Source of the DNA: a virus
Taxonomy: Duplodnaviria; Caudoviricetes
Virus record (IMG/VR): IMGVR_UViG_3300007974_000007
Coordinates: 1-32,176 of that record
DNA: 32,176 bases
Strand: one strand, 5' to 3'
Shown: positions 2,717 to 31,470 of the stretch, piece by piece
How the letters are laid out: each line of letters opens with the position of its first letter
How positions within the stretch are numbered: the first letter of the stretch is position 1
Translations under genes and position numbers: made by a program
The notes under the pieces: model-generated
Database searches by the model: none
The model's input: only the letters and a program-made list of their open reading frames with translations
What the model was told of the DNA's origin: nothing

Positions 2717-3395
2717 GTCTTACCCCTCCAAAAATTGATGATCCAGTGGTCGTTAAAGAATCGTGGTAATTGCCTTTTTTAGTTAGCCACTCAGCTTTAA
2801 ACCCAGTCCAGCCCCTTGCACACATTTCTTGCAAAGCTGCCTGTAGTGTTAAGCCAGCTTTCTGTGCCTCACGCTGTATCCCTTGCATAGCCGTCTTTGT
2901 GACTGTCGCCCGCTTAGTCTTTCTAAGCGAGAGAAAATCTTTCCATACGGATTCTGATACGCCTTCAGGCGGTGTATTTATTACTGGTGACTGGTGTTTG
3001 GTGACTGGTGACTGGTGAGCATTGCCTTCGCTATGCGTTCGCATTGCGTTTGCATTGCCATCGGACTGCGTTGGCACTTTGCTCCAACGTGCGTTTGCAC
3101 TATGACGGGCCTTGTCTTGCTTCTCACGAAACCGAGCAATTTCCTGATCGCACCTTTTGTTGTGCCAATGCCCATCTTCCAAGAAAAAAAACTCCGCGAG
3201 CACCACATCAACCGCTTTTCGTTCCTCGCGGGTGCGGCAACCTATCAACCTTTGTATAGCTGAAACGTCACCCGGCAACGGGCTTTCCTCGGCATAGTAT
3301 TTTCGGATCATCCGCAGATATGCGGTATCCTCAAGAAAAGTAAGGTGCGCGGTTGCTTGCGCGTAGTCGCCTAAGTGGTGCTCGTAGTAGTTCAT
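2610..3395 (-). CDS. DUF1376/YdaU-family replication initiator (lambda O-like)
   Basis: Likely start MNYYEHHLGDY..ATAHLTFLE..AYLR....YY..E..LP at 3395. Repeat-rich linker, then C-terminal W.DF...RK.K....T..A...RGWTGFKAEW domain. Confidence 0.85.
   Translation of the reverse strand: MNYYEHHLGDYAQATAHLTFLEDTAYLRMIRKYYAEESPLPGDVSAIQRLIGCRTREERKAVDVVLAEFFFLEDGHWHNKRCDQEIARFREKQDKARHSANARWSKVPTQSDGNANAMRTHSEGNAHQSPVTKHQSPVINTPPEGVSESVWKDFLSLRKTKRATVTKTAMQGIQREAQKAGLTLQAALQEMCARGWTGFKAEWLTKKGNYHDSLTTTGSSIFGGVRHEREVTGCVDQENISGNARQLRIEVATDVDGGTGS
2983..3073. repeat. Two tandem-repeat tiers in the initiator linker (putative replication origin)
   Basis: Five 7-mers ACTGGTG (third is TTTGGTG) at 2983-3017. 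Five 11-mers GCATTGCCTTC, GCTATGCGTTC, GCATTGCGTTT, GCATTGCCATC, GGACTGCGTTG at 3019-3073. Adjacent AT patch TATTTATTA near 2975-2983. Confidence 0.75.
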
Positions 3396-3404
3396 AGCAT
3401 CCCT

Positions 3405-3528
3405 AAAAACAAAAACCCTCAAGTGGGGAGGCGGTTGGAAGCCTGCACAAACACAGGTTGCCATCCCCACTAGAGGATTCTTGTGCTTGTGTTCGCGCTT
3501 CCAACGCGGCCCGATATTTCTCTCGGAC
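3405..3528 (-). ncRNA. Structured cis-regulatory leader of the initiator gene (interleaved helices)
   Basis: Helix A pairs 3482-3505 with 3434-3455; helix B pairs 3464-3479 with 3414-3429. One mismatch in each helix becomes a G-U pair on the - strand. A U-rich tract follows helix B. Confidence 0.6.
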
Positions 3529-3534
3529 AAACAC

Positions 3535-3563
3535 ACAGTAAACGACTATTTTCTGTTTGTCAA
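3535..3563 (-). promoter_or_regulatory. Sigma70-type promoter for the replication operon
   Basis: On the - strand, TTGACA (3563-3558) - 17 nt - TACTGT (3540-3535), immediately after the cro stop. Confidence 0.65.
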
Positions 3564-3785
3564 CTACTGCTGCGGAACAATCTCTGCGACCAGTTCCTCA
3601 ATGGGCACGTAGTCCGCAGGATTGACCTTCAGAGAGCCGCCGGTAATGACCTCCAACTTGTATGCCATGCCCTCAGGGATTTGCCCACGCTTCGCCCACT
3701 GGCTTACTGCTTGGCTCGTAATGCCCAACGCCTCGGCTAATTTGCGACGGTTGCCAAAATGTGCTTCTGCTTGTGCGATTTTCAT
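3564..3785 (-). CDS. cro: Cro-like (YdaS/Cro family) HTH regulator
   Basis: MKIAQAEAHFGNRRKLAEALGITSQAVSQW...IPEGMAYKLEVITGGSLKV; GAGGA RBS before ATG at 3785. Confidence 0.85.
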   Translation of the reverse strand: MKIAQAEAHFGNRRKLAEALGITSQAVSQWAKRGQIPEGMAYKLEVITGGSLKVNPADYVPIEELVAEIVPQQ

Positions 3786-3804
3786 GTCGTTCCTCATAGG
3801 GTTA

Positions 3805-3851
3805 AAGATAACTTGCAAAGCATCCTAACCTGTGCAAAGCTATCTTGTCAA
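3805..3851 (-). promoter_or_regulatory. Leftward early promoter with overlapping operator-like repeats
   Basis: TTGACA (3851-3846) - 18 nt - TAGGAT (3827-3822). Imperfect inverted repeat AAGATAACTTGCA...TGCAAAGCTATCTT, and direct repeat TGCAAAGC at 3814 and 3833, flank the -10. Confidence 0.6.
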
Positions 3852-3902
3852 GCGGCATTGATTTACTTAAGAATACTTTACAATTTTCCTTTGCAACAAG
3901 TG

Positions 3903-3931
3903 TTGACTTATGCCAATTAGGTGTGTAAAGT
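3903..3931 (+). promoter_or_regulatory. Rightward early sigma70-type promoter
   Basis: TTGACT (3903-3908) - 17 nt - TAAAGT (3926-3931), upstream of the first + strand ORF. Confidence 0.65.
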
Positions 3932-3974
3932 TCGTCTTGTGGTAACCGATTGACAACAACAAAGGAGCAAACAA

Positions 3975-4166
3975 ATGAACCAAATCACTCACATTACCGA
4001 ACAATGCGGCGCACGTTGGAACGTGTTTGCAACTGATGCAAATGGAGATCGTGCAATTTGGGTGCAACTAGCACTTGGCTATAACGGCAAATCAGTAGCC
4101 AAACCAAACACTCTCGGCTTCTATGTAACAGACGTAAATGCTGCTTGCAAAGCGTTGGCTAACTAA
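3975..4166 (+). CDS. Small early hypothetical protein, cassette 1 (63 aa)
   Basis: AGGAG RBS inside repeat copy 1; stop lies just before the hairpin of copy 2. Confidence 0.7.
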   Translation: MNQITHITEQCGARWNVFATDANGDRAIWVQLALGYNGKSVAKPNTLGFYVTDVNAACKALAN

Positions 4167-4221
4167 CTAACCACAAGGGGGCGCAAGCCCCCACTAATTG
4201 ACAACAACAAAGGAGACACAA

Positions 4222-4437
4222 ATGAAAACTTATTCAAACAAATTTGCAAGCATGGAACAACAAGCAAATGGTAAATGGTTGGTTTTCAATGAAGTAACTG
4301 GTTTACCGGATTCTGAACGCGATGCAGACGACCTGCAAGATACCAGTAGGCCAATTTTCTATTCGGATTATCAGTCTGCTAGAAACCGCATGGTGGAACT
4401 CACCACCCGTTATAAATATCAAATCGCAAAATACTAA
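4222..4437 (+). CDS. Small early hypothetical protein, cassette 2 (71 aa)
   Basis: Start corrected to ATG at 4222 (MKTYSNKF), after the RBS in repeat copy 2. Confidence 0.72.
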   Translation: MKTYSNKFASMEQQANGKWLVFNEVTGLPDSERDADDLQDTSRPIFYSDYQSARNRMVELTTRYKYQIAKY

Positions 4438-4490
4438 TTAAACAGGGGGGCGCAAGCCCCCGCTAATTGACAACAACAAGGAGCAACAAC

Positions 4491-4760
4491 ATGACTACTA
4501 CTCAAGAGCTTGTAAAGATCAAATATCAATCTAGCGTCAAGACACCCGCCGGATGGCGCAGCGTGCAGATCGTAGCTGCTGCTGAACGAGTATCGGATGC
4601 AATGGCGCAGGTCAAAGAAGTGCTGCTTATTGACGGTGAAACCCCCAATTATCAACAGTCACGCACTGGCGCAAAACGCCAAGAATTCAACGGCAAGTAT
4701 TTTGCAACTCAGCAGATCGGCGCAAAAAAACGCATCGCTACTTGCGAACTGCTTGCGTAA
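4491..4760 (+). CDS. Small early hypothetical protein, cassette 3 (89 aa)
   Basis: Start corrected to ATG at 4491 (MTTTQELVKIKY), after the RBS in repeat copy 3. Confidence 0.75.
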   Translation: MTTTQELVKIKYQSSVKTPAGWRSVQIVAAAERVSDAMAQVKEVLLIDGETPNYQQSRTGAKRQEFNGKYFATQQIGAKKRIATCELLA

Positions 4761-4788
4761 CAATAATTGACAACAACAGGAGACATCT

Positions 4789-5076
4789 ATGAACCTCTGC
4801 AAAAATTGCGCTCACTACAAGAAAAACGCCGACAACGTTGAAGCAAGCGAATGCACCCGCAAGCCGCAGTTCTCACCCATCAGCGGGCACGTGCTGCCGA
4901 CGTTCTGCAACCTTGAGCGTGCAGCTTGGGGAACGTGCAAGCCCGAGGGCGCTCACTTCAAGCCACGCGAACTTACGATGACTGAGTCAGAACTAGATCA
5001 CGAGTGGGCGCGACGCATGAGCCGTGGCGAATACGACTACGACATTTTCTGCCGTCGATTGGTGGCTGGATCATGA
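4789..5076 (+). CDS. Cys-rich (putative Zn-binding) early protein
   Basis: CKNCAHY...C...C..ER.....C.PEG..F pattern; RBS in repeat copy 4. Confidence 0.75.
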   Translation: MNLCKNCAHYKKNADNVEASECTRKPQFSPISGHVLPTFCNLERAAWGTCKPEGAHFKPRELTMTESELDHEWARRMSRGEYDYDIFCRRLVAGS

Positions 5077-5147
5077 ACGGCGACCGCGCAGTAGCAATCG
5101 GCTTCACCTTACTTTTTTTACTTATTATCACGGGGGTAATAGCATGA
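5073..5147 (+). CDS. 24-aa hydrophobic micropeptide
   Basis: MNGDRAVAIGFTLLFLLIITGVIA; ATGA overlap at both ends. Confidence 0.6.
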   Translation: MNGDRAVAIGFTLLFLLIITGVIA

Positions 5148-5731
5148 ACAAATCAGAAAGCATCACCAACCTAGCCACCGCGCTTGCAATGGCGCAGATG
5201 AACATCAAGGGCGCAATCAAAGACAGCGCCAATCCTTTCTTCAAATCCAAATACGCCGACCTGTCCTCGGTGGTCGAAGCCATCCGTCCTGCATTCGGTC
5301 AATGCGGACTAAGCTACATTCAGCGGGTTGAGCCGTCCGATAGGGACGAAGTGCGCGTCGAGACGATCTTGCTCCATGCATCCGGTGAGTGGCTCTCTTG
5401 TGGGGTGCTTAACTTGCCGGTCAGCAAGGTTGATGCCCAAGGCTACGGTAGTGCTTTGACGTATGCCCGCAGGTATAGCCTTGCCGCTGCCTGCGGTGTC
5501 GCCCCCGAGGACGACGACGGCAATGCGGCAAGCGGTAAGAATGCCCCTCAGAAACGCTTAGATTCGCTCAACACGCACTTGGACGCTATCGCCGCAGTTA
5601 CCACACAGGACGCGCTAAAAACGGCTTATACGCTTGCCTACAAAGCCGCCAAGGAAGTCAACGACACCGAGGCCATGACAGCAATCGTCGCTGCCAAAAA
5701 TTCCCGCAAGGCAGAACTGGAGGAAGCATGA
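5144..5731 (+). CDS. erf: ERF-family single-strand annealing protein
   Basis: KDSANPFFKSKYADL...GSALTYARRYSL.A..GVAPEDDDG signature; start MNKSESI at 5144. Confidence 0.93.
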   Translation: MNKSESITNLATALAMAQMNIKGAIKDSANPFFKSKYADLSSVVEAIRPAFGQCGLSYIQRVEPSDRDEVRVETILLHASGEWLSCGVLNLPVSKVDAQGYGSALTYARRYSLAAACGVAPEDDDGNAASGKNAPQKRLDSLNTHLDAIAAVTTQDALKTAYTLAYKAAKEVNDTEAMTAIVAAKNSRKAELEEA

Positions 5732-6342
5732 AAGTTTTGTCAATGCCGCAGGGCAGTCCTGAGTGGCTTGCAGCCCGCGCCGGTAAGGTTACGGCCTCAA
5801 GGATCAACGATGTGATGGCGGCTAAGACCACCGCAGCCTATCGGGACTACCGGGCGCAGATCGTGGCTGAGATTCTTACAGGTCAGCCGCAGGAGTCCGG
5901 TTTCACAAATGCGGCTATGCAATGGGGGACTGAGCAAGAAAAATTCGCCCGCGCTGAATACGAAATGTTTTGCGCTTGGACGGTCGACGAAGTGGGGCTA
6001 GTCATACATCCAACGATTGAACAGGGCGCGGCTAGTCCCGACGGCTTAGTGTCTACCGATGGGCTGGTGGAAATCAAGTGTCCCAAGACTTCCACGCACC
6101 TGCAAACGTTGGTGGACAAGAAACAGCCTCGTCAGTATGAAAATCAGATGCTGTGGCAGATGGCTTGCACAGGTCGGGAATGGTGCGACTTTGTGTCATA
6201 CGATCCGCGACTGCCCGAAGATTTGCAGTTGTTTGTGCATAGATTCGACCGCGATCAAGAACGTATTGACGCGATTGAAGAGGCAGTAAAGCAGTTTTTG
6301 ATTGAAGTAAATGAAATGATTGACAACATCAAAGGAAAATGA
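5728..6342 (+). CDS. YqaJ / lambda-exonuclease family recombination nuclease
   Basis: QGSPEWLAARAGKVTAS, MQWGTEQE, ASPDGL, VEIKCP and Y..QM.WQM motifs. Confidence 0.93.
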   Translation: MKVLSMPQGSPEWLAARAGKVTASRINDVMAAKTTAAYRDYRAQIVAEILTGQPQESGFTNAAMQWGTEQEKFARAEYEMFCAWTVDEVGLVIHPTIEQGAASPDGLVSTDGLVEIKCPKTSTHLQTLVDKKQPRQYENQMLWQMACTGREWCDFVSYDPRLPEDLQLFVHRFDRDQERIDAIEEAVKQFLIEVNEMIDNIKGK

Positions 6343-6343
6343 A

Positions 6344-6592
6344 ATGGCTTACATACCGAAACCCGGTTCTTTCACTCTGTTCAAGAACGACAAAAAGCAA
6401 ACCGAAACGCACCCTGATTACAGGGGTGATGGAATGGACATGAACGGCGAACCTGTGTGGGTTAGCGCGTGGATTCGTGAGGGCGCAAAAGGCAAATTTA
6501 TGTCTTGCTCTATGCAGCATAAAAATCAAGATCAGCCGGTAAAGAAAAAGGCTGGCGATATGTCGGATTTGGATAACGACATTCCGTTCTGA
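6344..6592 (+). CDS. Small phage single-stranded DNA-binding protein
   Basis: LFKND.K....HPDYRG...VSAW pattern with acidic DLDNDIPF tail; follows ERF and exonuclease; start MAYIPK at 6344. Confidence 0.75.
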   Translation: MAYIPKPGSFTLFKNDKKQTETHPDYRGDGMDMNGEPVWVSAWIREGAKGKFMSCSMQHKNQDQPVKKKAGDMSDLDNDIPF

Positions 6593-6636
6593 TTTAACGG
6601 GGGAAAGCTGCGGTGAGTACCCTACAAAGGCACACT

Positions 6637-31164: not shown

Positions 31165-31470
31165 TTAAGTTTCTTCTACAAACGCAACATCTTTCCAAGA
31201 CATGAGAAGATATCGCACGTCATCTTCAAAATACTCTGTGTAACGAAGATAATCATCGGCACTAGACTTCCCATACGTGCCGAAAAACACCTTGTCGCCC
31301 ACCTTTAACGGCATCGGGTCTTGCTTGCCGTTATCGTACTTTTGCCCATCACCTACAGCCACTACAGTTCCACGGCTGTCGGCTTCGTTATCCATCACCT
31401 GAATCACGTCTGACTTAATGCGTGCTTCAGGTAATACTAGAATTTTGTCTTGCAGTGGTCGGAATTTCAT
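31165..31470 (-). CDS. groES: Co-chaperonin GroES (Cpn10) family
   Basis: MKFRPLQDKILV...GTVVAVGDG...PLKVGDKVFF..Y...YLLM...DV. Confidence 0.9.
   Translation of the reverse strand: MKFRPLQDKILVLPEARIKSDVIQVMDNEADSRGTVVAVGDGQKYDNGKQDPMPLKVGDKVFFGTYGKSSADDYLRYTEYFEDDVRYLLMSWKDVAFVEET

Follow-up and report, generated by a model that had tools for sequence, protein, structure and literature searches.

What is the run of very small genes that lies between the cro-like gene and erf of this phage, and are its genes exchanged at the repeats that separate them? The DNA analyzed, here called the window, is a 32,176-bp virus record that is 98% complete. It encodes a P22-type capsid, portal, and terminase together with ejection genes. 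A cro-like HTH gene and replication genes are read leftward, and erf, a YqaJ-type exonuclease gene, and ssb are read rightward (Table 1). The nearest matches of the capsid were uncultured spring-water phages (84–87%), and neither a DNA search nor a capsid protein search found a close cultured relative. The phage also has a gene for a GroES co-chaperonin (31165–31470).

A first-pass annotation of the sequence had remarked that a CI repressor would normally sit at this place and had called the gene array integrase-free. Pfam families of integrase, resolvase, and S24 (cI-type) proteins were absent from all five genomes searched, namely the window and four relatives that are 99–100% complete, and the controls were positive. 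For the tyrosine integrase family PF00589 among them, the result was 0/5 genomes (98–100% complete), with a positive control in 14/14. Both remarks were thus supported. Because integrase, resolvase, and S24-type cI were not found in the five genomes, the lineage looks lytic, without a cI between the divergent promoters. Two further features were noticed on the leftward side. Long nested inverted repeats with arms of 21 and 16 nt occupy the interval between cro and the replication gene (3409–3505) and suggest a structured leader RNA; an Rfam search of them gave no match. Tandem repeats of 11 nt inside the O-like replication gene (3019–3076) are possibly origin iterons.

Table 1. Features of the array locus and its flanks in the window
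Feature	Position	Strand	Basis or remark
cro-like HTH gene, left anchor of the locus	3564..3785	-	phrog_409 E 1e-18, phrog_35 E 3e-10
Predicted leftward sigma70 promoter, TTGACA-18-TAGGAT, before the cro-like gene	3822..3851	-	Consensus scan
Predicted rightward early sigma70-like promoter, TTGACT-17-TAAAGT, ahead of the array	3903..3931	+	Consensus scan
Core copy 1 (ATTGACAACAACA), then RBS; the sole copy remaining in empty alleles	3949..3961	+	
Cargo ORF J, 63 aa, first slot	3975..4166	+	One homolog cluster at 71%
Junction unit 1, with a GC hairpin at 4177-4192 (GCAA loop) and core copy 2 at 4197-4209	4173..4210	+	
Cargo ORF H, 71 aa, middle slot	4222..4437	+	pN/pS 0.16 (one pair)
Junction unit 2, with a hairpin at 4446-4461 and core copy 3 at 4466-4478	4442..4479	+	
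Cargo ORF B (orf3), 89 aa, in the rear slot; family widespread in phages; model rich in beta structure	4491..4760	+	pN/pS 0.07
Core copy 4, without hairpin	4766..4778	+	
orf4, Cys-rich 95-aa protein, constant right anchor; five Cys and one His invariant	4789..5076	+	
erf, YqaJ-type exonuclease gene, and ssb, candidate recombination machinery on the array strand	5144..6592	+	PHROG matches

The element ATTGACAACAACA occurs in exactly four exact copies in the window, starting at 3949, 4197, 4466, and 4766 and all on the plus strand, and it did not occur in 100 shuffles of the window. At all four copies GGAG stands 6–7 nt ahead of an ATG. The first-pass annotation had described four ORFs of 63, 71, 89, and 95 aa that start 6–7 nt behind a repeated element, in an array placed directly behind the rightward promoter and opposite cro. 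Coordinates, lengths, A runs before GGAG (3, 3, 2, and 1 along the array), and placement were all confirmed. The two 38-nt junction units are 95% identical, and each carries a GGGGGC-GCAA-GCCCCC hairpin. They do occupy two internal junctions, as had been written, but the junctions between ORFs number three. The view of the array as four genes also needed correction. Four ORFs stand behind the core, but the fourth, orf4, was present at all complete loci of the lineage and is therefore an anchor outside the variable array, not a cassette. The array formula of the window is J-H-B, followed by orf4.

Several other readings of these signals were rejected. The TTGACA within the core had no −10 partner at 16–18 nt and was rejected as a promoter −35 box; a consensus scan of 3300–5300 found no promoter inside 3949–4791. 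The boxA consensus includes a 5′ GCUC half, which is missing here, and the bases left of the core are variable, so a Nus boxA reading was dropped. Rfam at gathering threshold gave no match in the whole window. The hairpin was rejected as an intrinsic terminator, with no U-tract on the plus strand and a terminator scan at chance (3 vs 2.8). The A run is not a positional rule, since it follows the downstream gene and differs among relatives. A degenerate fifth copy of core and leader was seen in the last yqaJ codons, ahead of ssb (6319–6346); most relatives have a similar stretch, but it is coding.

Relatives were sampled in three ways. A pattern search for hairpin plus core returned 30 loci from viral and 10 from metagenome sequences, and every one of them lay at the cro/orf4 locus. 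Because this search favours filled arrays, loci were also sampled by cro and by orf4. The cro sample, which was chosen without the motif, comprised 63 IMG/VR loci at ≥74% identity, and 17 hits at ≤59% were left out. Nineteen of these loci were empty, 33 had one gene, 6 had two, 2 had three, and 3 were incomplete. Pooled over all retrievals there were 131 complete loci, many of which were contigs retrieved more than once, and 48 distinct cro–orf4 sequences. The latter represented 19 states (empty plus 18 filled) and 16 unrelated cargo families, designated A, B, C, D, E, F, G, H, I, J, K, L, M, O, P, and Q; family Q (L143) and family F in L104 were included in the tallies. A further family, N, proved to be a spurious ORF over the promoter, and the two loci concerned (L136/L188) were counted as empty. 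A promoter-like pair was present at the site of the rightward promoter in 45 of the 48 distinct alleles. Three relatives with empty arrays (L121, L122, and L144) carry an inserted leftward gene, AlpA/HTH_17 excisionase-like, in the interval from the divergent promoter to cro (for example, L144:3061-3312, minus strand). The supposition that gene number and content change in relatives was supported, with 0–3 genes from 16 families, as was conservation of the repeat beyond this genome, across relatives of the lineage.

Content varied on closely similar backbones. Loci that were empty (L191), held C (L196/L199), or held A-C (L103) shared cro at 99% and orf4 at 96–98%. The same cargo was also found on divergent backbones; for family A, cro identity was 74–100% and orf4 identity 63–100%. 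Alignment of L103 with L196 indicated that gene A is inserted core to core. The indel that separates C-bearing from empty alleles stops at a plain RBS; there is no second core at its end.

The core, TTGACAACAAC in the lineage, was found ahead of 83 of 92 gene starts and was exact in 80 of the 83 copies. Among distinct first-copy contexts, 11 of its 13 columns were invariant (32/32), while the −35 box and the pre-core spacer varied. Exact copies were restricted to this locus in the window and five complete relatives. Outside the lineage there were 43 of 103 matches to core plus GGAG; each was a single copy, most were not followed by a start codon, and the idea of the same core system in other lineages was discarded. 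The nine junctions without a core lie after C, Q, L, and some B.

To locate breakpoints, we used 33 pairs that have different first genes behind near-identical promoter sides; these pairs are not phylogenetically independent. In 31 of them exact identity stopped 12–21 nt past the core start; the other two involve the single mutated core. On the left of the core, six pairs shared 90, 55, 36, 34, 32, and 31 exact bases; they diverged 13–19 nt after the core start, so their crossovers are pinned to the core-to-ATG stretch. For 17 of the 33 pairs only 1 base left of the core was identical, and their crossovers may lie further left, in the promoter. Nine of 16 pre-core spacer variants were joined to at least two different first genes. 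The proposal that cassettes are gained, lost, or swapped at the repeats therefore held for the varying content and for junctions at the repeat; it did not hold for the 9/92 coreless junctions or for the fixed orf4.

Gene order was polar. Seven multi-gene types were observed: A-B, A-C, D-C, I-B, L-M, D-H-B, and J-H-B. In this small sample no gene pair occurred in both orders. Family C alone took both first and later positions, compared with a permutation mean of 3.8 (P = 0.014); it sat in slot 1 or 2, and B stood behind A, I, or H. The array is an ordered set of slots and not an integron-style shuffle. Since no reordering was seen, the earlier term integron-like overstates the case. Homology length could be a reason for the order, as inner junctions share ~38 bp with each other and 13–21 bp with the first copy.

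The cargo ORFs are real genes under purifying selection: pN/pS was 0.05–0.16 in 8 of 9 families with at least two alleles and 0.52 in family F. Searches of PHROG, Pfam, NCBIfam, PADLOC, and the Atlas and fold searches gave no function for any cargo gene. In PHROG, families K, E, L, and C matched only families of unknown function. A single Pfam match was above cut-off, Glyoxalase_8 (E 1e-5) in family I, which is absent from the window; other matches were weak. The orf3 protein (family B) gave a beta-rich model with a pLDDT of 88. It had no match in the PDB at E ≤ 0.001. One uncharacterised viral homolog was found, and the best Z in a fold search, 3.9, was to various small beta-barrels. Homologs of family B form 35 clusters, and the family is found in many unrelated phages that lack the core. 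Its N-terminus in the window (4491–4515) has an extension of 7–8 residues that most outside homologs lack, possibly a relic of capture. The orf4 model was poor (pLDDT 59). In the Atlas, orf4 matched only hypothetical proteins and orf1 matched nothing. The suggestion of host-takeover or anti-defence cargo found no support in any of these searches, and the term anti-defence is unsupported because no cargo function was found.

The 6-bp GC hairpin is present at two of three internal junctions in the window. Across the lineage it is missing after B, C, O, P, Q, and some D, and hairpin plus core was not found in GTDB genomes. Homologs of family A were found at 44 loci in distant phages (erf 44–77%), mostly behind a promoter-like sequence as judged by eye, with the leader TTTT-GGAGGT kept. 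A hairpin followed the stop codon in 31 of 36 distinct contexts. Its loop switched among GCAA (19), TTCG (13), and TACG (5), all of which are stable tetraloop types. From these leaders, hairpins, and loop switches it follows that the travelling unit is leader-ORF-hairpin and that the hairpin is selected as a structure. The part special to this lineage is the 13-bp core alone, and the hairpin is a gene tail held in common with distant phages and is not specific to the repeat unit. Other distant Erf-bearing phages (L011, L016, L018, L056, L061, L070, and L423-L459) have the same layout of cro, small genes, and erf. Their leader differs: a small hairpin is followed by GGGTCTTTT(T)AGGA, repeated and often with duplicated promoters, and has the look of boxB-boxA.

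The lineage is mosaic at other places as well. Two allele classes of erf, 34–52% and 83–97% identical to the window (5144–5731), lie between near-identical neighbours, and insertions of genes were seen between erf and yqaJ as well as after ssb. The locus after ssb (window 6590–6615; L127, L133, L136, and L147) is a second variable locus of 26–1419 bp, and some insertions there are flanked by duplicates of a short ACGGGGGAAAGC-type repeat. Mosaicism is a general habit, of which the array is not the sole example but the richest and most regular one.

We consider it probable that a block of 0–3 genes is turned over at the 13-bp core and the hairpin, with leader and hairpin doubling as Erf/YqaJ crossover points between co-infecting relatives. 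Variation, junction positions, purifying selection on the cargo, core invariance, and conserved relative order were seen directly, and the crossovers are read from allele comparison of metagenomic assemblies. The core, CA-rich tract, and RBS would be primarily an expression signal, an unstructured translation leader, and the core may be invariant even in empty alleles because of this role. The hairpin would serve at the RNA level as the tail of the preceding gene, in mRNA 3′ protection or attenuation. Exchange would likely proceed through the phage's own Erf/YqaJ single-strand annealing between co-infecting relatives. Hairpin-plus-core junctions (~38 bp; ~50 bp to the ATG) would recombine readily and mix front with rear genes. 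Crossovers between the first core and an inner core (13–21 bp) would be rarer and would create or remove slots, and this rarity might explain why front genes do not stack. New genes would arrive from distant phages as leader-ORF-hairpin modules by way of look-alike leaders and hairpins, and the cargo would likely act early on the host.

Published recombination data bear on this mechanism in part. According to one report, Erf/Exo of phage D3 recombined 78%-identical sequences as well as Red did, and a minimal pairing segment of 23–27 bp is quoted there for Red-beta (PMC3945230). The exact shared stretch at the first core, 12–21 bp, is under that quoted minimum, so bare-core events should be rare. 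Mosaicism at places without this repeat, namely the erf alleles and the erf/yqaJ and post-ssb insertions, counts against the mechanism proposed here, as do the nine coreless junctions.

The core could instead be an expression signal and nothing more, such as an SAS-like translation leader (see below), a processing site, or a protein-binding site. Selection would then place it before captured genes, turnover would occur by allelic recombination in the long conserved flanks with rare microhomology events, and the repeats would not raise the exchange rate. Such an account fits the invariant core of empty alleles, in which no partner copy exists, the fixed relative gene order, the variation of other boundaries in the same phages, the degenerate copy ahead of ssb, and the occurrence of family B in many phages without the core. 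However, the core-to-core change of gene number (L103 vs L196) needs non-allelic crossovers, as do the placement of C in slot 1 or 2 and of B behind A, I, or H, and the core is absent before genes elsewhere in five complete relatives. We therefore regard it as rather unlikely.

Less plausible still is that the 13-bp core is a dedicated recombination site at which an unrecognised phage or host protein inserts modules by the promoter, in the manner of an integron attI. In favour of this reading are the near-total invariance of a core too short to reach the usual pairing minimum, the polarity (one family both first and later vs 3.8 expected, permutation P = 0.014), the weak inverted repeat TTG-N4-CAA in the core, and the constant linkage of one gene, orf4, to the core. 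On the other side, neither a tyrosine integrase nor a serine resolvase was found in the window or the four 99–100% complete relatives, breakpoints are spread over 12–21 nt and not fixed at one base, cassettes are not reordered, and the orf4 model (pLDDT 59) is too poor to suggest an enzyme. It is equally improbable that the core is an attI-like capture slot whose protein is possibly the Cys-rich orf4, into which a lytic lineage loads leader-ORF-hairpin modules from the gene pool of distant freshwater phages. If so, immediate-early counter-defence genes would have a polar cassette system that works without an integrase.

Chimeric or collapsed assembly at the 38-bp repeat in mixed-strain metagenomes is very unlikely: all alleles are metagenomic assemblies, but empty alleles came from 16 dataset identifiers (a hand count from contig names) with 15 distinct sequences, D-H-B, L-M, and J-H-B recurred in separate datasets, and the 13-bp repeat is shorter than usual assembly k-mers.

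Turnover at the core and hairpin, the reading we prefer, has a close parallel in T4-type phages. There the promoter-early stem-loop (PeSL) is an intergenic unit with a stem-loop, RBS, and start codon before small ORFans; where one phage has an ORF with a unit on each side, a relative has one unit only, crossovers are located between leader elements and ATG, and a dedicated recombinase is not known (Arbiol et al. 2010, PMC2839356; Comeau et al. 2014, PMC4122927). The array resembles PeSL in the stem-loop within the unit (at two of three internal window junctions), in the Shine-Dalgarno and start codon at its 3′ end (GGAG 6–7 nt before ATG at four copies), and in having an ORFan between two units where a close relative has one (L103 vs L196; 19/60 complete loci empty). 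As those sources describe it, PeSL has a sigma70 promoter in each unit, ~100 bp of conserved sequence, and ~50 copies in hyperplastic regions, whereas here one predicted promoter lies upstream, the conserved part is 13–38 bp, and 1–4 copies stand at one locus. The phage here is also a 32–34-kb P22-like phage with Erf/YqaJ, and the site is empty in about a third of its lineage. PeSL is further marked by excised mini-circles and by terminator activity of its stem-loop; the hairpin here has no U-tract on the plus strand, and the terminator scan was at chance. Among array units, only cassette M in L086 (2655-2990) brings its own promoter, a copy of the early promoter, with no core; it looks like a PeSL-like unit within the array. 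The array works alike but is not a PeSL, because it lacks a promoter in each unit.

The start-associated sequence (SAS) of cluster K mycobacteriophages is a 13-bp asymmetric, single-orientation, lineage-specific repeat (consensus GGGATAGGAGCCC) just upstream of the ATG of non-structural genes; a role in translation initiation is proposed for it, and its copies are spread over the right arm and stay with gene families (Pope et al. 2011, PMC3203893). The core is likewise a short, asymmetric, one-orientation repeat just upstream of non-structural gene starts. The two sequences are unrelated, however, and by that description SAS contains the Shine-Dalgarno and is spread over the arm, whereas the core stands on the 5′ side of the Shine-Dalgarno, occurs only at a single tandem locus, and marks indel junctions there.

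Integron cassette arrays consist of promoterless single-gene units behind one promoter, with an empty state and positional polarity. The array shares the empty state and the polarity, and a sequence scan that predicts one promoter upstream and none inside the array would fit promoterless units. It differs in that no IntI integrase was found in the five genomes, no reordering was seen among the seven multi-gene types, and no attC-type site was seen by eye, the hairpin being a perfect short stem unlike attC. The array is not an integron. Salmonella 9NA-like phages reportedly exchange small genes by homologous recombination at intergenic direct repeats, which are longer than those here. Literature searches, whose coverage left out most subscription papers, found no published description of the element or the lineage.

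The principle itself has thus been published for T4-type phages, and the finding is the less surprising for it. The locus offers a clean natural data set for swaps of first-expressed genes, with empty, single, and stacked alleles on near-identical backbones and junctions at 13–38 bp. With so little homology, less than the usual pairing minimum, the old idea of linker sequences is put directly to the test. The first-expressed position is one where counter-defence genes are often found in phages, and 16 small genes under selection, most without a known family, are ready for screening.
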